A stretch of 64,000 nt of DNA. Source: a virus. The notes under the pieces were generated by a model. The model did no database searches. It saw only the letters and a list, made by a program, of their open reading frames with translations, and was not told where the DNA came from. The DNA is taken from IMG/VR virus record IMGVR_UViG_3300009177_000034, positions 5,374 through 69,373 of that record. The stretch is one strand, 5' to 3'. Of this stretch, positions 5,257 to 45,307 are shown piece by piece (within the stretch, counting starts at the first letter, position 1; each line of letters begins with the position of its first letter). The translations under genes were made by a program, and so were the position numbers.

Positions 5257-5709
5257 TCATGCCACCAGGAACTCGTGCCGGCCCTCGACCAGCGTCACGC
5301 GGGCGGCGTCGTACCACGCGGGCAGGTCGCCCAGGCGCCGCCCCGCGCGCGTCGCCGCGGGGTTGAGATAGAACAGCGCCCCGCCCGTCGGGTCGGCCTC
5401 CAGGCGCCAGTAGGCGAGACTGGCCGCGCGCCACGCCGCCTCCCACGAGGCCGGCGCGATGGCCGCCAGGCGCGCCGCGCGCGGGCCGGCGTAGTCGGCG
5501 TTCCAGGCGCTAAACTGCCGGGGGGCGAGGCACACCTGGACGATGCCGTCGCCCTGCGCGTCCATCCGGTTGCGGATGACCCACGCCACCGCCACTTGGC
5601 CACGCGGCGACTCCGACTCGGCCTCTAGCAGGACAGTCGCCGCGTAGAGCAGCAGGCCAGGCCAGGTCCGCGGGTCGGCCAGCGGGGGCAGCGGGAGGAG
5701 GCCGGCCAT
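5257..5709 (-). CDS. SleB-like cell wall hydrolase (probable endolysin)
   Basis: EAESESPRGQVAVAWVIRNR..QFSAWN..DPTGGALFY..GRHEF (Hydrolase_2 pattern). Confidence 0.88.
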   Translation of the reverse strand: MAGLLPLPPLADPRTWPGLLLYAATVLLEAESESPRGQVAVAWVIRNRMDAQGDGIVQVCLAPRQFSAWNADYAGPRAARLAAIAPASWEAAWRAASLAYWRLEADPTGGALFYLNPAATRAGRRLGDLPAWYDAARVTLVEGRHEFLVA

Positions 5710-38952: not shown

Positions 38953-40035
38953 CTAGTGGCGGGCCCGCTGCTCGTCGACGTAGCGCTTGTAGAGGTCCGG
39001 GTGGGCCTTCGTCACCTGGTCGACGGCGGCGCTGTAGTCCAGCTTGCCGTCGGCCTTGGCGATGAGGCCCTGGGCCTTGGCGTCGATCTCGCTCCAGGCA
39101 TCGCCCGTGCCGCCGCCGCTCTGGTCCGAGCCGGCGGCCTTGAAGAGGCCCGCGGCGATCATGCCCGCGTCGGCGGCGCGCAGCAGTTCGGTGACGCGCT
39201 TGGCCACGTCGGGGGACAGCTTCTCGTCGATCTCGCGGAGGACCGCGTGGTCGTCGTCGGCCTTGATCGGCAGGCCCTTGAACGTCGCGCACTTGGCCAC
39301 GTACTCGGCGGTGAGGCGCGCGTCCTTCTCGGCCTTGGCGATGCCCTCCACGACCTCCAGGCGCTTCTTCAATTCCACGCTCTCGGCGGTGGCGTCGTCG
39401 AGGCGCTTCTGGATGTCGTCCGGGGCGGGGGTCTTGTCAGTCTCGGTGGCGGCCATGGGGTCTCCCTTCATCGTGACGGCGGGGATGGCGTGGGGCGCAG
39501 CGTTGGGGTCCGGATTCAGCGGTTGCGGGACGGCCAGCGGCTGCACCAGCGCGGGGTCCACCGGGCCCTTGCCGCGCACGGCCAGGAACGACTCCAGCAT
39601 CTGCGTCAGCTTGCCCAGCGCGTCGGCGAGCCAGGCGCCCTCGGTCGCGGGCACCGCCTTGTCGTCCTTCGGCTCCTTGGGCGGGTCGGCCTTCGGCGCC
39701 TCGGGGGGCGTCTCGACGGCGGCCGCCTTCGGCGCCTCGGGCGGGAACGGCTCCGCCTTCTTGACGCCGAGCTTCTCCATCGTCTGGTCGAACAGGGCCC
39801 GGAACCCGGACACCTTGGCGATCATCTCGGGCGTGGCGACAGGGGTCGGCTCGGTCATGGCGGCGTCCCTCTTGAACAGCACAACGTGAGCGCCCTCGCC
39901 GGTGGCGGAGTCTATCGAGGCCCCCCGGTCGACGAGGTCGATCCGCTGGTAGCGGAGGTTCGTGAGGCGGCGCGCCTTGCGCGGGCCCTTCGGAAGGGTA
40001 TTGACGTGCACGCCGTCCACGGTCGGCTGGGGCAT
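38953..40035 (-). CDS. scaffolding protein
   Basis: IDLVDRGA..A.VVLFKR N-terminus, coiled coil, HPDLY C-terminus. Confidence 0.78.
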   Translation of the reverse strand: MPQPTVDGVHVNTLPKGPRKARRLTNLRYQRIDLVDRGASIDSATGEGAHVVLFKRDAAMTEPTPVATPEMIAKVSGFRALFDQTMEKLGVKKAEPFPPEAPKAAAVETPPEAPKADPPKEPKDDKAVPATEGAWLADALGKLTQMLESFLAVRGKGPVDPALVQPLAVPQPLNPDPNAAPHAIPAVTMKGDPMAATETDKTPAPDDIQKRLDDATAESVELKKRLEVVEGIAKAEKDARLTAEYVAKCATFKGLPIKADDDHAVLREIDEKLSPDVAKRVTELLRAADAGMIAAGLFKAAGSDQSGGGTGDAWSEIDAKAQGLIAKADGKLDYSAAVDQVTKAHPDLYKRYVDEQRARH

Positions 40036-40514
40036 CAGGCTACCTCGCAGCGGAGCGTCAGCGGCGCCAGGTCGTCGTCCTCGGGCATCTCCACGATCTT
40101 CACGTCGGCCCCGCCCTCGACGCTGAACATCAGGCGGTCCCCGCGCACCACCCGCTGGTAGGTCGCCTCGGGCACCTCGTAGCCCACGAAGTGGCCGACC
40201 GGGAGGACGCCGTCGGGGATGCCGAGGGCCTTGATCTTCTCGGGGGTGAAGGCCATCGACTCGATCAGGCGCGACTGGGCGACGCCCTCGTGCATCTCGC
40301 CGCCCAGGCCCACGCCCTTGAGGACGAAGTCGTAGGCGGCCTCCTCGATGTCCTCGGGTTCCGTCACGTCGCCCTGCTTGTCAACGAAGACCTTCCCGTC
40401 ACGGGTGCGACTGATAATGGCCCACCCCCAGACGCGACGAGGCGATGCGGATTTGAACACTACGTCGAGTTCCCAGGCTACGGAGACTGGAGTTGGCATG
40501 TGATCTGACAGCAC
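40035..40514 (-). CDS. prohead serine protease (XkdF-like)
   Basis: RVWGWA..DKQGD..IEEAAY.F..EMH..ES..FSVEG. Confidence 0.85.
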   Translation of the reverse strand: MLSDHMPTPVSVAWELDVVFKSASPRRVWGWAIISRTRDGKVFVDKQGDVTEPEDIEEAAYDFVLKGVGLGGEMHEGVAQSRLIESMAFTPEKIKALGIPDGVLPVGHFVGYEVPEATYQRVVRGDRLMFSVEGGADVKIVEMPEDDDLAPLTLRCEVA

Positions 40515-40552
40515 GCTACCACACTCTAGAGAGTGGACTACTACTCCTCGTG

Positions 40553-41053
40553 CTACTCCAGGGCGTCCTGCCGCATGGGGCGCCGCCGGTTTCGAGCCTG
40601 CTCTGCCCGTGTTGCCCAGCGAAGGTTCCCCGCCTCGTACCCCCGGCCATTGTCGACGCGGTCAAGCGTATGAGCCGGGGAGGGGCGCGGGCCGACGTGG
40701 GCGAAGAACGTCTCGAAGTTGAGCATGGCTGGCGCCACGGCAATCCCGCGTCCGGCGTAGTCTTTCGCCTGCGGATGGTCTGGGCGACACCGTCGGATCA
40801 TATTCTGGTGGGCCAGGTACTCCGGGAGGCGGCTCCCTCCGTAGCGGAGCGAGCGTTCTCGGGTCAACTCCAGGCTGGCGCAGCCGCACGAGGTTGTGTG
40901 GCCGCTTTTGAGGTTGCCCTGGTCGACGATGCGCTCGTTCCCGCAGGCGCACCGCACCTGCCACGTCTTGAGATAATGCGGCCGCGTCGGACCGGCGCCG
41001 ACAACAGTCAGCCGGCCAAACGTGCTGCCCACCTCGACGGCGTCGGACCGCAC
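40553..41053 (-). CDS. HNH homing endonuclease
   Basis: FGRLTV..RCACG..SCGC..YAGRGI..TLDRVDN..YEAGNLRWAT. Confidence 0.9.
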   Translation of the reverse strand: MRSDAVEVGSTFGRLTVVGAGPTRPHYLKTWQVRCACGNERIVDQGNLKSGHTTSCGCASLELTRERSLRYGGSRLPEYLAHQNMIRRCRPDHPQAKDYAGRGIAVAPAMLNFETFFAHVGPRPSPAHTLDRVDNGRGYEAGNLRWATRAEQARNRRRPMRQDALE

Positions 41054-41333
41054 TGGCGCGCTACTCCAGGGCCGACCGGGGCACCGTCACGCTCCGGGGG
41101 CGCCCCGTCGCGTCGACGACCCGGACCCGCCGCCCGCGCCCGCTCACGCGGGTCACCGTGCCGGCGAGGCCGGCCGCCCAGGCCAGCGACGGGCGGAGGG
41201 CGTTGGCTGCGGGCAGGGTCACCGCGCCGCCCCGCACGTCCGCCTCGGCCTCTGCCGCCGCCACCGGGTCTGTCATGCGTCTGAGTCTACGCTGCGGCGC
41301 GTACGAAGCGGGCGCGTTCATTCAGCGCTCGAT

Positions 41334-43130
41334 TCACTCGGCTCTGGCCCGCGGCTCCAGCACCAGCGAGCACCGGCAGTTCTGGGTGATAATGCCACCG
41401 GCCATGTAGAACCCATCCCCCGTCTGGAGGTTGTAGACCGGCCCATGGAACGCATACGCCTCGACCATGCGAACGCGATCCGGCTCTACGTCGGTGGCCT
41501 CTCGGAGAATGCGCTCGCCCAGCGCCTCGGCGTCTCGCGCAGCGTCATCGCCCGACGGCTGGCCGCCCACGGGATACCGCGGCGCTCCCAGAGCGAGGCG
41601 GAGCGGCTCAAGTGGCAAGGCATGACCCCCGCGCAACGCCAGCGCCAGGTCCGCGCAGCGCACGCCGCGGCCACAGGGCGCACGGTCCCGCTGGCGACCA
41701 AACTGCGACTCGCGGCGACTCGGGAGGCTCGGGCACAGTTCGGAAGCGCGGAGGAGGCGCGCCTCGCGGGGATGCTCCAGCAGCGAGGCGTCGTCGTGAC
41801 CCCGCAGCGAGCCATCGGCCCATATAACTGCGACCTGGGAGCCGGCCCCGTCGCCGTGGAAGTCTTCGGCGGCAACTGGCACACGCGTGGGCGGCGCTAC
41901 GCGCGCCAAGCGGAGCGCACGCGCCACATCCTCAATGCGGGCTGGCATCTCCTCGTGGTGGTCGTGACACGAGCGGCCCCACTGACGGAGGCGACTGCTG
42001 ATTACGTCGCTGCCTACGTGGAGGCGGCCCGCCTGGACCCAGCCGCCCGGCGTGAGTATCGGATGGTTCGGGGTGCAGGCCAGACGCTTACCGCTGGCGG
42101 TGCGGAGGATGACCATATCGCCCTGGTAGATGCGGGCACTCGTCGCCGCAATCCGCGAACCGGGCGCTACGAGCGCGTCACCCGGTAGGCAGTTCGGATG
42201 CGCCGGCGGGCCCTCAGGGAACGCCTGGCCGATGGGGCGCGTCTCGCCGTCCAGTTCCCGGCACCGCTCGCAGGCGCTCGCGTCCTGGATGCGCCAGACC
42301 TGGACGTGGTCGGGCGGCAGCAGGTCGAGGGCGTCCAGGACCGCCCACCCCTCCACCAGGCCGGCCTGCGCCGCCGCCCACGTCTCCGTCGCGGCAATGG
42401 TCAGCGTCCGGGCGGCCCGGAGTTCCTCGCCGTAGACGGCCAGGGCCGCGCGAATCTGCGGGCGCGACAGGCGACCGTCCGCCAGGAGGCGCGTGCGCTC
42501 GGCCTGCAGCGCCGCCGCCTGGGCCTCCGTCAGGCCGACCATCGTCCGGAGTTCGGCCGCCGTCTCCTCGACGGACAGGCCGGCGCGGATGCTGCCCGCG
42601 ATCACGGCGCGGATGGCCGCGCGCGTGCCCGCCGTCACCTCGGCCACCGCGGCGGCCGCGCGCCGCTCGGCCCAGTCCGCGGCGGCGGCGCGGACGATGG
42701 CCAGGTCGGCCGCCTCGGTCCCGTCGGGCCCGCCGTCGTGCCGGGCGCCGGCGCGGAGGGCCGTCAGGAAGGCCGCGCCCAGGGCCACGACCAGGCCGGC
42801 CAGCAGCGCCCGCTCATGCTCCTGCCACGGCAGGTCGTCCACCTGGGCGTCCGTCAGGTCGGCCTCCGGGGAGTCGAGCCAGGCGCGCACGCGCTGCTCG
42901 GAGAACTGCTCGCGCAGTTGCGTCACGGCGGCCTGGTAGGTGGCGGCCACGTCGCGCTCCGCCCGCTGCGCGGCCCGCTCCAGGGCGGCCACGAGGGCGG
43001 GGTTGTCGGCCTTCGCCAGGTGCGCGTCCGCGAGGTCGAGGAAGCGGTCCAGCGCCGCCAGCAGCGGCGCCAGGCTCACGCGAGGAGTTGCCACGGGCAT
43101 CATCCGACCCGGGCTTCTTTCTTCACTCAC
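41334..43130 (-). CDS. MuF-like minor head protein, intein-containing
   Basis: RTLTIAATE..W...D..ACERC..LDG..PPAHPN|CRC motif split by an intein. Confidence 0.88.
   Translation of the reverse strand: MSEERSPGRMMPVATPRVSLAPLLAALDRFLDLADAHLAKADNPALVAALERAAQRAERDVAATYQAAVTQLREQFSEQRVRAWLDSPEADLTDAQVDDLPWQEHERALLAGLVVALGAAFLTALRAGARHDGGPDGTEAADLAIVRAAAADWAERRAAAAVAEVTAGTRAAIRAVIAGSIRAGLSVEETAAELRTMVGLTEAQAAALQAERTRLLADGRLSRPQIRAALAVYGEELRAARTLTIAATETWAAAQAGLVEGWAVLDALDLLPPDHVQVWRIQDASACERCRELDGETRPIGQAFPEGPPAHPNCLPGDALVAPGSRIAATSARIYQGDMVILRTASGKRLACTPNHPILTPGGWVQAGRLHVGSDVISSRLRQWGRSCHDHHEEMPARIEDVARALRLARVAPPTRVPVAAEDFHGDGAGSQVAVIWADGSLRGHDDASLLEHPREARLLRASELCPSLPSRRESQFGRQRDRAPCGRGVRCADLALALRGGHALPLEPLRLALGAPRYPVGGQPSGDDAARDAEALGERILREATDVEPDRVRMVEAYAFHGPVYNLQTGDGFYMAGGIITQNCRCSLVLEPRARAE
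41379..42191 (-). mobile_element. 271-aa intein in MuF with no in-frame endonuclease
   Basis: CLPGDALV (block A), CTPNHPILT..GW (B), VYNLQT..FYMAGGIITQN|C (F/G); removal restores HPNCRC. Confidence 0.92.
41445..42188 (+). CDS. HTH + Vsr/DUF559-like endonuclease encoded antisense inside the intein
   Basis: LY..GLS...LAQRLGVSRSVI.RRL...GI.RR HTH; EARL..ML..G....Q..IGPY.CD....AVEVFGGNWH...ILNAGW nuclease motif. Confidence 0.88.
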   Translation: MERIRLDHANAIRLYVGGLSENALAQRLGVSRSVIARRLAAHGIPRRSQSEAERLKWQGMTPAQRQRQVRAAHAAATGRTVPLATKLRLAATREARAQFGSAEEARLAGMLQQRGVVVTPQRAIGPYNCDLGAGPVAVEVFGGNWHTRGRRYARQAERTRHILNAGWHLLVVVVTRAAPLTEATADYVAAYVEAARLDPAARREYRMVRGAGQTLTAGGAEDDHIALVDAGTRRRNPRTGRYERVTR

Positions 43131-45138
43131 TTACTGGCATCGAACTCGTGGGCCTGGGCGACGATGGTACCGCCAGCGCCACATAAATCGGCCTGTCGCC
43201 GTCGGCCTTGCCAACCTTAACCTCCTTCCAACGCACGTTCCCAATCGGTGACTCGGACGGAACGAACGCCGCATCCGCTACCCAGGCCCGCTTGATCCAC
43301 TCTGGCGGGATGTCGCCCTTGATCTTCAGCGCCGTCCGCTTCCCGGTCTGTGCTGGGTCCTCTACGATTCGGTGTTTCTCCGACGCGGGGACATGCACTT
43401 CCAAGACAACCGCTGTCGCGTTCTCGGCCGAGTGCTGCGCCGCGTACGTAGCGAACGCGACAGCGGTCTGATGATCGTGCGCGAGGAATACGTGCCCCGT
43501 CTCCGTACCAGGCCACGCCTGCCCCGCCTTATCACCCTTGAGCCCGGTCGAGAGAATCGACGCAAGGTTGGCGCTACTCGTCCCATGCGTACCGATGATC
43601 GCGCCGGCTCCGCCCCCGCTCCCGGAGGAAAACTCCCCGGTGCTGGCGTCGTGGTTCGGGTTGCCCTCCTTGCGGACGACGACCGACGCGGCGACGGCCT
43701 GGCGCAGTTCGCGGACGGCCCGCACGAACTCCCGCCGCTCCGCGTGGTAGGCCCAGGCCGGCGCGGGCCCCGCGGCCTTGGCGATCTCGCCCTTGTCCCG
43801 CGTCGGCAGCTTCGCCGCGGCCATCAGCGCCGCCTCTAGCTCGGGCTCGGGGAATAATTCCATCCCGGCCCCGGACAGTTGGCCGATGAAGGCGCCCAGT
43901 TCCGACAGGTTCGGGGTGTCGATGGCGCCGTGGGCCAGCTTCGGCATCCGCTCGGAGCCCCACCCGTTGAGCGCCATCAGGCGCGGGATGGCGTGGCGGT
44001 TGAACACCTCGGCGATGGTGTCCAGGAACGACGCCAGGGCCAGGCCGAACAGGCGGGCCTTGTTCTCGTGCAGCGAGAACGACCCCGTGCCCTCGTGGCC
44101 GACGAGGATGAAGTCGGCCAGGACGGTCATGGCGATGCGCTGCTCGTAGCGGCCGATGATCTCGGTCGTGTCGTACTGCCGGCGCGAGCCCGTCGACAGC
44201 AGGGAGAACTCCAGCCAGTGCGGCAGGACCGCCCCCTCCTGCTCGTCGCGGCGCACCGAGCGGACGAACGTCTCGATCTTGTCCTTGAGCGCGTTGGCGT
44301 CGGGCGTCCCGGTCCAGATGTCGGGGCCGAGGGCCTTGCCGGTCGTCGGGTCCGTCTTGATTTGGGCCACGGGGTAGCCGGCCAGGTCGCGCTCCAGGCC
44401 GATGGCCTCGTACTCCTGGACGCGCTTCGCCAGGAACCACGAGCGGTAGGCGCCGCGCAGGATGCTGCGGCCCTCCGGGTTGCCCTTCCACGACGTGGGG
44501 CGGAACAGCAGCGACTTCTCGACGGGCAGCGTGACGATCTGGAACTTCGGCGGGGCCAGTTGCACCATCGCCTGGACGCCGCCCTCCTCGTCGAACTCCC
44601 AGTGCAGCAGCGAGTCCTGGGCGCGCGTGCTGATCTTGCGCCAGCCGATGCGGCCGTCGCCGTAGCGGCTGCGGCGCGTCGGGTCCGGGTCCTCGGCCAG
44701 GCGGCGCTTGTAGACGATCTCCGCCCAGTGCCAGCCGTAGGGCAGCATCGACAGCACCTCGGCGATGAGGTCCGCCCACGTGATATTCATATCGTCCAGG
44801 CACGAGTTCACGAACTGCGCGCGCAACTGGTCGCCCACGTCGGCGCTGGCCGCGTCGACCCGCCACGTCACCTGGCGCACGAGGTACTCGATGGCGAACA
44901 GCATCGCGTTGACCACGGCGTCGTTCTCCCGCATCTCGCGGTAGACGACCGCGGCCTGGCGCCCCTGGAGGACGCGCAGGAACTCCTCGACGACGTAGCC
45001 CGAGTAGCGCTTGAGGCCGGTGGAGCCTAGCTCGATGAACGGGTTGGTCGGGGCGTAGCCCGAGACGACGCCCGGCGTCGGGTCGGCGGGCACGACGACG
45101 CCCGGGGGCAGCGGCCCGCCGTTCGTGCTAGACGGCAT
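43123..45138 (-). CDS. portal protein with C-terminal ADP-ribosyltransferase-like extension
   Basis: ELGSTGL..YREM..D..NPEGRSILR.AY..ERDLAG..IP.L..LN portal motifs, then NPNHD..GEF linker and HGT..VFL..GDIPPEWI. Confidence 0.88.
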   Translation of the reverse strand: MPSSTNGGPLPPGVVVPADPTPGVVSGYAPTNPFIELGSTGLKRYSGYVVEEFLRVLQGRQAAVVYREMRENDAVVNAMLFAIEYLVRQVTWRVDAASADVGDQLRAQFVNSCLDDMNITWADLIAEVLSMLPYGWHWAEIVYKRRLAEDPDPTRRSRYGDGRIGWRKISTRAQDSLLHWEFDEEGGVQAMVQLAPPKFQIVTLPVEKSLLFRPTSWKGNPEGRSILRGAYRSWFLAKRVQEYEAIGLERDLAGYPVAQIKTDPTTGKALGPDIWTGTPDANALKDKIETFVRSVRRDEQEGAVLPHWLEFSLLSTGSRRQYDTTEIIGRYEQRIAMTVLADFILVGHEGTGSFSLHENKARLFGLALASFLDTIAEVFNRHAIPRLMALNGWGSERMPKLAHGAIDTPNLSELGAFIGQLSGAGMELFPEPELEAALMAAAKLPTRDKGEIAKAAGPAPAWAYHAERREFVRAVRELRQAVAASVVVRKEGNPNHDASTGEFSSGSGGGAGAIIGTHGTSSANLASILSTGLKGDKAGQAWPGTETGHVFLAHDHQTAVAFATYAAQHSAENATAVVLEVHVPASEKHRIVEDPAQTGKRTALKIKGDIPPEWIKRAWVADAAFVPSESPIGNVRWKEVKVGKADGDRPIYVALAVPSSPRPTSSMPVSE

Positions 45139-45307
45139 GGCCGACGTGCCGGTCCCGGTACTCGGCCAGGCGGACCAGGACGCGGACGGCCGCCGTGCTG
45201 ACGGTGACGACGCGCCGCTCGGGGTCGTAGCGCACGCGCCCGAGCACCTCGTCGTCGAGCCAGGCCGGCTCGCGGGCCTCCAAATACTCGTTCGGCGTCA
45301 CGATCAC
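45128..45307 (-). CDS. small hypothetical protein
   Basis: 59-aa GTG-start ORF filling the gap between terL and portal. Confidence 0.45.
   Translation of the reverse strand: MIVTPNEYLEAREPAWLDDEVLGRVRYDPERRVVTVSTAAVRVLVRLAEYRDRHVGHAV

Follow-up and report, generated by a model that had tools for sequence, protein, structure and literature searches.

How can one stretch of phage DNA encode both a protein-splicing domain and the enzyme expected to spread it, when the reading frame of the splicing protein contains no recognisable endonuclease? The question is raised by a 64,000-nucleotide stretch of viral DNA (positions 5,374 to 69,373 of IMG/VR record IMGVR_UViG_3300009177_000034; called the window below, with coordinates counted along it), in which a - strand MuF/head-morphogenesis gene carries an intein, and the + strand of the intein DNA carries a second open reading frame (ORF). 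The source record comes from an uncultured virus, measures 69,373 bp and carries direct terminal repeats; the window has a GC content of about 0.71 and is found in rhizosphere-metagenome DNA, where 19 of 20 listed sequencing runs contain at least part of the stretch. A first-pass annotation, made from the letters alone, had proposed a dual-coding mobile element whose splicing and homing functions are expressed from opposite strands, and comparative evidence strongly supports the core of that proposal. The window element is very probably a member of a large mobile family residing at the MuF site HPx|C(R/D/E)C, in which an intein on one strand (here -) is backed on the other (here +) by a protein combining a helix-turn-helix (HTH) region with a Vsr/EDxHD-like nuclease.

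An intein and a predicted nuclease on opposite strands of a head gene

The interrupted gene (41334..43130, - strand) is a single continuous frame of 598 codons, and the precursor it encodes reads ...PPAHPN|CLPGDALV...GGIITQN|CRCSLV..., placing the insertion at HPN|CRC. An N-extein of 313 aa (42192..43130, - strand; ending ...PPAHPN) matches the PHROG category 'head morphogenesis' at E 9e-17, and the C-extein, as read from the ORF, consists of CRCSLVLEPRARAE followed by the stop codon (41334..41378, - strand). The Phage_Mu_F family (PF04233) matches this frame weakly, at 21.3 bits against a curated cut-off of 29.6. Removal of the intein would restore the conserved C-terminal HPxCRC motif as HPN|CRC, and intein-less MuF relatives carry HPGCRC, HPQCRC or HPNCRS at the same place. 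Immediately upstream lies a Mu-type portal gene (43123-45138, - strand; Pfam Portal_Mu E 7e-28). Taken together, the PHROG match, the position after the portal gene and the HPxCRC motif identify the product of 41334-43130 as a phage MuF/SPP1 gp7-like head morphogenesis protein.

The intein itself is 271 aa long (41379..42191, - strand), with Cys1 at 42191-42189, Asn271 at 41381-41379 and the +1 Cys at 41378-41376, so that the C-terminal Asn and the following Cys required of a class-1 intein are both in place. Block B reads T40-P-N-H43, and C1, T40, N42, H43 and N271 are invariant among 36 aligned inteins. An AF2 model built on these 36 sequences is confident at two ends of the protein: the HINT N-lobe, residues 1-70 (41982..42191, - strand; block A and the TPNH of block B; pLDDT 81-95), and the HINT C-lobe, residues 233-271 (41379..41495, - strand; blocks F and G, ...FHGPVYNLQT...IITQN; pLDDT 77-95). 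The model superposes on HINT structures with Z 12.3-12.5 and a root-mean-square deviation (rmsd) of 2.0-2.2 Å over 107-108 residues; each of the top 50 rows returned by VIA is an intein, Hedgehog or bacterial-intein-like HINT domain, and so is every one of the 28 best Foldseek rows listed, down to rank 30, an intein. At the level of profiles the - frame matches phrog_15127 'head protein' in PHROGs v4 (E 2.8e-24) and, weakly, Pfam Intein_splicing (20.5 bits against a curated cut-off of 35.8, E 4.5e-4). On the strength of the model and the invariant residues, 41379..42191 encodes a class-1 HINT intein, which is predicted to splice.

What lies between the lobes is of two kinds. Residues 130-232, where an in-frame endonuclease domain would sit, have no recognisable structure in the AF2 model (pLDDT < 50), which bears out the unrecognisable central linker of the first-pass annotation. 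The linker as a whole, residues 129-232 (41496..41807, - strand), has the highest entropy of the - frame and is apparently an unconstrained read-through of the nuclease antisense. Residues 80-128 (41808..41954, - strand; consensus ...PVPVxAEDFHGDGxGSxVAIVxAD; pLDDT 51-85) are a conserved stretch of the - frame that lies antisense to the nuclease active site. Because the 107-108 aligned residues fit residues 1-70 plus 233-271, this stretch is probably not part of the HINT core; it is a conserved motif of moderate AF2 confidence.

The second gene occupies 41445..42188 on the + strand, from an ATG at 41445 to a TAG at 42186-42188 that is complementary to codon 2 of the intein (Leu, CTA), and encodes 247 aa. 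As first described, it is wholly nested in the intein and codon-aligned with it (42191-41445+1 = 747 = 3 x 249). The protein was modelled with high confidence from a 24-sequence alignment (AF2 mean pLDDT 89.5, pTM 0.70) and falls into three parts. Residues 1-98 (41445..41738, + strand) form a helical, predicted DNA-binding region, with six helices between residues 8 and 96, weak matches to several Pfam HTH families and VIA Z of about 5 to the HTH domains of resolvase and Mos1. Residues 99-197 (41739..42035, + strand) form a Vsr-like nuclease domain, and residues 198-247 (42036..42185, + strand) a beta-strand tail (strands 204-246, pLDDT 66-91) that lies antisense to the HINT N-lobe.

The nuclease assignment comes mainly from structure. 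Residues 99-218 superpose on Vsr 1cw0 with VIA Z 10.6 and rmsd 2.4 Å over 112 residues, followed by 1vsr (Z 10.1), the homing endonuclease I-Bth0305I (3r3p, Z 9.8) and the DUF559-like 3hrl (Z 9.0); the remaining rows are two mitoribosome chains (Z 8.6 and 7.7) and matches at Z 6.6 or below. Foldseek agrees with a Vsr-like fold (E 3.4e-4), and a profile search against the PDB returned 3hrl at E 0.004 and 3r3p at E 0.02. The structural match of the + protein to Vsr is clear, and the Pfam matches on both strands, including REase_MTES_1575 at E 2e-5 on the + strand, stay below the curated cut-offs. D130 (41832-41834), E139 (41859-41861) and H146 (41880-41882) are invariant in the 24-sequence alignment, and D130 and H146 align with the I-Bth0305I positions mutated in the 3r3p crystal construct (D196A and H213A). 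Of the five-residue composite EDxHD motif, the same alignment, taken by itself, conserves E104, D130, E139 and H146 and has no evident conserved Asp after H146. The window ORF is complete and carries every family-invariant residue. That it encodes an N-terminal HTH region joined to a Vsr/I-Bth0305I-like nuclease, a predicted homing endonuclease, is thus strongly supported by modelling and alignment together.

PHROGs v4 holds no family for the antisense nuclease and gives only weak matches to its HTH parts; since the intein frame has phrog_15127 and the nuclease has none, the library reflects the missing annotation of this gene. In five loci (L034-L036, L049 and L051) the nuclease stop lies at intein codon 28 and not at codon 2, leaving a tail shorter by about 26 residues, so at least part of the tail may be dispensable.

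Two frames kept open in related loci

Is the overlap more than a by-product of composition? In the window taken alone, one might well think that the + ORF is a shadow that encodes nothing: at 71% GC and the window's own codon usage, as few as 0.6 antisense stops are expected for the - frame and 1.0 for the + frame, and GC1 and GC3 each stand at about 0.78 whichever frame is read, so that codon-position GC does not tell the frames apart. The window by itself therefore gives dual coding no statistical support, and the case that the feature exceeds chance is made by homology, by the predicted fold and by related loci.

Such loci are abundant. Searched with tblastn, the + protein has relatives in 119 phage records, with coverage of 80% or more in 112 of them, and in at least 562 IMG/VR stretches; at E <= 1e-30 there are 95 relatives among metagenome proteins and 1,477 representatives of 50%-identity clusters. 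A further 48 loci lie in bacterial genome records, several of them isolates and many of them metagenome-assembled genomes, with labels of many lineages. We examined 84 loci, made up of the window, 80 IMG/VR loci and three phage records, together with the 48 bacterial-genome loci. As dual coding implies, homologous frames lack frequent stops: the codon-aligned antisense frame is stop-free over the match in 83 of the 84 loci and 47 of the 48 (130/132), although resemblance to the + protein was the basis for choosing these loci, a sampling that favours intact + frames and does not favour open - frames. The remaining two minus frames of these loci contain 3-37 stops. The insertion site is nearly constant (MuF HPx|C...HN|C(R/D/E)C), and GC ranges from 0.36 to 0.72.

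For counts within inteins, L008 and L010, which are cut by contig ends, were dropped and L052, which has no intein, was excluded; collapsing identical DNA copies then reduced 81 inteins to 73 unique ones. L006 and L031, whose C-terminal borders were mis-set, were excluded from the stop, signal, codon-2, penultimate-residue and synonymous-site counts. In the 58 unique loci with at least 25 Leu plus Ser codons in their exteins, not one minus-frame stop was observed where about 264 are expected from each locus's own extein codon usage. Among 71 unique inteins, plus-frame stops (n=104) are confined almost entirely to the ends: 56 at codon 2, nine at codons 3-30 and 37 in the last 25 codons, where they fall upstream of the nuclease start, leaving two elsewhere. 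Homologues at GC 0.36-0.5, where 5-14 stops per locus are expected in either frame, keep both frames open. These stop-free frames, the avoidance of stops, the confident AF2 fold with its match to Vsr, the greater conservation of the + frame over about 170 codons and the existence of two relatives that are free-standing genes opposite closed frames (described below) refute the idea of a shadow ORF, to which we assign almost no weight.

Conservation is divided between the frames in zones. By column entropy in the 73 unique inteins, conservation is greater in the - frame at intein residues 1-50 and 251-271, within the two HINT lobes, and in the + frame at residues 61-110 and 121-240, with a tie at 111-120. 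Synonymous constraint gives a second measure. It was taken as codon identity given the same amino acid in a pair, with the flanking extein of these pairs, amino-acid-matched, as control. The 68 loci whose exteins offer 100 codons without a stop ahead of the intein entered this comparison, giving 2,268 pairs, none of them above 50% identity in the intein. Relative to the extein control, synonymous-site identity is raised in the - frame over the HINT N-lobe (ratio 1.59, and 1.82 at intein residues 56-69) and in the + frame over the nuclease core (1.53; nuclease residues 122-170, opposite intein residues 80-128), and is 0.97-1.06 in the + frame over nuclease residues 10-121, the HTH/linker zone, these being ratios without a p-value, from pairs that are not independent. 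A ratio of about 1 within the same element serves as an internal control and argues against a simple effect of age. Entropies and ratios together indicate that the HTH half of the nuclease lies over the free, disordered intein linker; its catalytic half and tail seem, from these alignments, to lie over DNA constrained in both frames.

The signals for translating the nuclease are embedded in the intein as well. A Shine-Dalgarno-like GGAGG (41426..41430, + strand), noted at first reading and confirmed here, stands 14 nt before the ATG, antisense to the Leu-Gln of block F (YNLQ). The family pattern was examined in 62 loci, those in which a Y/F/H-N/T-L motif could be recognised and whose exteins contain 10 or more Leu codons. 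The block-F Leu codon (YNL) is CTC in 42 of them against 14.8 expected (z 8.6); the + strand reads GAGG or GGAGG in 36, with GGAGA in five more; and an ATG or GTG start, usually the complement of the block-F His codon, follows downstream, after 8 nt in 32 loci and after 14 nt in 22, the window among them. At the other end, intein codon 2 is Leu in 61 of the 71 unique inteins and TTA or CTA in 56, with the nuclease stop located there in 55. Ribosome-binding site, start and stop are thus built from block F and codon 2, so that these signals travel inside the mobile unit.

Mobility, free-standing relatives and the state of the window copy

Does the element move? A comparison is possible in Salmonella phages. 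The N-extein of the intein-bearing phage SaI_NFG_5577 has matches in 30 records, one of which, Salmonella virus VSiA, encodes an intein-less MuF of 347 aa (...PPAHPN-CRS...) that is exactly the predicted spliced product. Presence is thus patchy among close relatives. The two MuF genes are 96-98% identical in nucleotides far from the site, 71-76% in the 30 codons before it and 73% in the 10 codons after it, and the last 36 residues before the insertion site are identical. This gradient is co-conversion-like, the pattern that would be expected of homing from a divergent donor.

We propose that the MuF precursor would be translated straight through the antisense of the nuclease gene, a read-through that works because TTA, CTA and TCA, which become stops when read backwards, are avoided. 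The intein would then excise itself and rejoin the flanks as HPN-CRC. Translated from an antisense transcript, the nuclease would cut or nick the intein-less MuF alleles of co-infecting phages, and repair would copy the entire element into them.

Two relatives stand outside this arrangement. In L052 (2845-3705, + strand of that locus) and L113 (2486-3181, + strand of that locus), the nuclease is a free-standing gene that converges on an intein-less MuF gene and overlaps its 3' end, with the MuF motif intact (HPGCRC and HPQCRC, respectively); the codon-aligned antisense frames contain five and two stops. The gene next to the L052 pair encodes an XkdF protease, a neighbourhood like that of the window. 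Both free-standing proteins have the C-terminal tail, and the tail/core identity ratio in L052 is 0.57, against a family mean of 0.85 and minimum of 0.51. Since these genes lie beside intein-less MuF genes, they suggest that the nuclease is tied to MuF independently of the intein, and they may be ancestors of the nested form or escapees from it.

That the nuclease can exist without an intein is also what would be expected if it had another purpose altogether, such as attacking or excluding competing phages or acting as a regulator by way of its HTH, and were associated with the intein by accident. We regard this as very improbable, given that the gene is nested in an intein in 130 of the 132 loci, almost all at the same MuF site, that its signals are confined within the intein borders and that the gradient at the insertion site fits homing.

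A more serious alternative accepts the family as described and holds that the window copy is a relic, fixed and inert, with a silent or inactive nuclease and an intein that merely splices, perhaps slowly. Several observations weigh on this side, and so against an active mobile element in the window. The penultimate intein residue is Gln270, as the first-pass annotation had read it, where 66 of the 71 unique inteins have His, leaving only five without it and only two with Gln. The other Gln copy, L048 (IMG/VR), has a + frame stop in the nuclease HTH region, at intein codon 219 of 274, and this interrupted frame could hint at decay, as a single case. The 14-nt Shine-Dalgarno spacing is the longer of the two family variants. 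A scan of 41000-42400 for sigma-70 promoters and terminators returned 0 sites and so gives no support to TAGACC at 41434 as a -10 box, and the suggestion that the nuclease is uncoupled from late-gene timing is left as conjecture; in its other descriptive points the first-pass annotation is borne out. Nor did the search for relatives help: megablast of 40000-45200 against the phage collection gave no match and no close relatives of the window N-extein were found in viral contigs, so that, with no close MuF relative, gain or loss in this lineage cannot be dated. Metagenome contigs from four runs over 41000-43200 bridge both intein junctions and include no intein-less form, which says nothing on its absence; the joints listed for these contigs are short-sided and resemble other organisms or repeats, and none of them skips exactly the intein. 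In addition, most VSR-like cases look vertically inherited in the account that Gosselin, Arsenault and Gogarten give of actinobacteriophage inteins (bioRxiv 10.1101/2025.01.02.630785). Transcription and translation of the + ORF, splicing (above all with Gln270), the specificity of cleavage and the activity of this copy are all matters that we infer.

Some of these points have a counterpart. Gln270 is unusual, but not disqualifying, because class-1 phage inteins frequently lack the penultimate His and yet still splice, as reported by Kelley et al. (2016), and the block-F His (FHG) is present. The 14-nt spacing is common to 22 loci, and the window + ORF is complete with all family-invariant residues kept. 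We therefore judge a relic unlikely, and prefer to read the window copy as a dual-coding mobile element like its relatives.

The MuF region of the window holds one more gene of this general kind. Directly downstream of MuF lies an HNH endonuclease gene of 166 aa (40553-41053, - strand; PHROG phrog_374, E 8.6e-45; no Pfam match at E <= 0.01), and next after it a - strand XkdF-type protease gene. Two different homing-type nuclease genes, the HNH gene and the antisense nuclease, thus occur in the same region.

Described relatives and meaning for intein biology

The first-pass annotation knew of no description of this layout; in that it was wrong. Gosselin et al. (10.1101/2025.01.02.630785) report 63 non-canonical inteins in PhagesDB, among them antisense VSR-like endonucleases in full inteins, and state that minor-capsid inteins carry only non-canonical endonucleases. 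The likeness to the window element is close: a contiguous intein with a Vsr-like endonuclease antisense within it, an in-frame middle without recognisable structure, a minor capsid (MuF) protein among the hosts, and an endonuclease that matches 1CW0 with Z 10.6 in both cases (theirs also with an HHpred link to 3R3P). The layout is therefore already described, and the window is one more member of a large family. Unlike the family traced here, the survey covers PhagesDB only, and the available portion of the preprint contains neither a stop-avoidance statistic nor a map of conservation by frame; it does not analyse translation signals (ribosome-binding site, start, stop) embedded in the intein, and it mentions neither cases from outside the actinophages nor free-standing relatives next to MuF. 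In the literature we found no other description of an antisense Vsr-like endonuclease in an intein and none outside actinophages, with the caveat that the supplementary tables of the preprint might list more. What the present analysis may add is the reach of the family into phages or prophages of many bacterial lineages (by genome-record labels) and into cultured coliphages and Salmonella phages, together with the stop-avoidance statistics, the translation signals embedded in the intein, a constraint that is zoned and in part double, and the free-standing relatives beside MuF.

Other known elements share parts of the design. Antisense LAGLIDADG inteins (Synechocystis dnaX and a Chloroflexus SpoVR-like gene, from Gorbalenya 1998 and Gogarten 2002, as cited in 10.1101/2025.01.02.630785) likewise keep the endonuclease outside the intein's own frame and within its DNA, but with another nuclease family and in other host genes. 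The 'fractured genes' of Dassa et al. (2009, PMC2677866), mainly phage-derived, resemble the window in having a Vsr-like endonuclease with its own start and stop inside intein DNA; in those, however, the Vsr-like or GIY-YIG gene lies on the same strand between the halves of a split intein. The window differs from such an arrangement: its host gene is a single ORF, and the nuclease is encoded on the other strand. I-Bth0305I, of the EDxHD group (Taylor et al. 2011, PMC3239194), shares the HTH/NUMOD-type N-terminus, the Vsr-like catalytic domain and the conserved Asp and His, whereas it sits in a group I intron of recA and its sequence similarity to the window nuclease is marginal (E 0.02).

A capsid-morphogenesis intein has been reported in Guernseyvirinae, in E. 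coli phage Snoke (PMC6776784), in Salmonella UPWr_S phages (PMC8425127) and in vKMB36 (PMC11162368). This is a homologous element at the same MuF site, and the window + protein is 33-37% identical there by tblastn. As far as the available portions of these papers go, they note the intein only, as does the Snoke GenBank annotation, with no antisense nuclease gene. In the four phage records that we inspected, the overlapping ORF was annotated as hypothetical in one and absent from the annotation in three. The case matters for annotation, since most records miss the nuclease gene.

How might such an element have arisen? The zoned constraint and the free-standing relatives allow a more ambitious reading, which we advance tentatively and hold to be somewhat less probable than its contrary: that about 125 codons (intein 1-128, nuclease 122-247) are under purifying selection in both frames, so that the nuclease gene would not simply occupy an idle spacer, and that the element goes back to a free-standing endonuclease gene aimed at MuF which fused with an intein located at the site that the enzyme itself cuts. 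In this joint reading, the Vsr-like catalytic domain and tail appear to back the N-terminal 128 residues of the intein, comprising the HINT N-lobe and the conserved segment that follows. 'Collaborative homing' is a route proposed for mobile group I introns, and a merger of this kind would be, by analogy, its intein counterpart.

In sum, the case shows that a selfish element can write its splicing domain on one strand and its predicted mobility enzyme on the other strand of the same bases, with the ribosome-binding site, start and stop of one carved from the conserved blocks of the other. The arrangement bears on the model of intein biology in which splicing came first and an endonuclease invaded later, and the cultured coliphage and Salmonella phage relatives lend themselves to the study of antisense expression, of homing and of what dual coding costs. 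If the double constraint is real, the element, represented in at least 562 viral stretches, 119 phage records and 48 bacterial loci, would be one of the largest antisense dual-coding gene pairs that occur naturally in phages.

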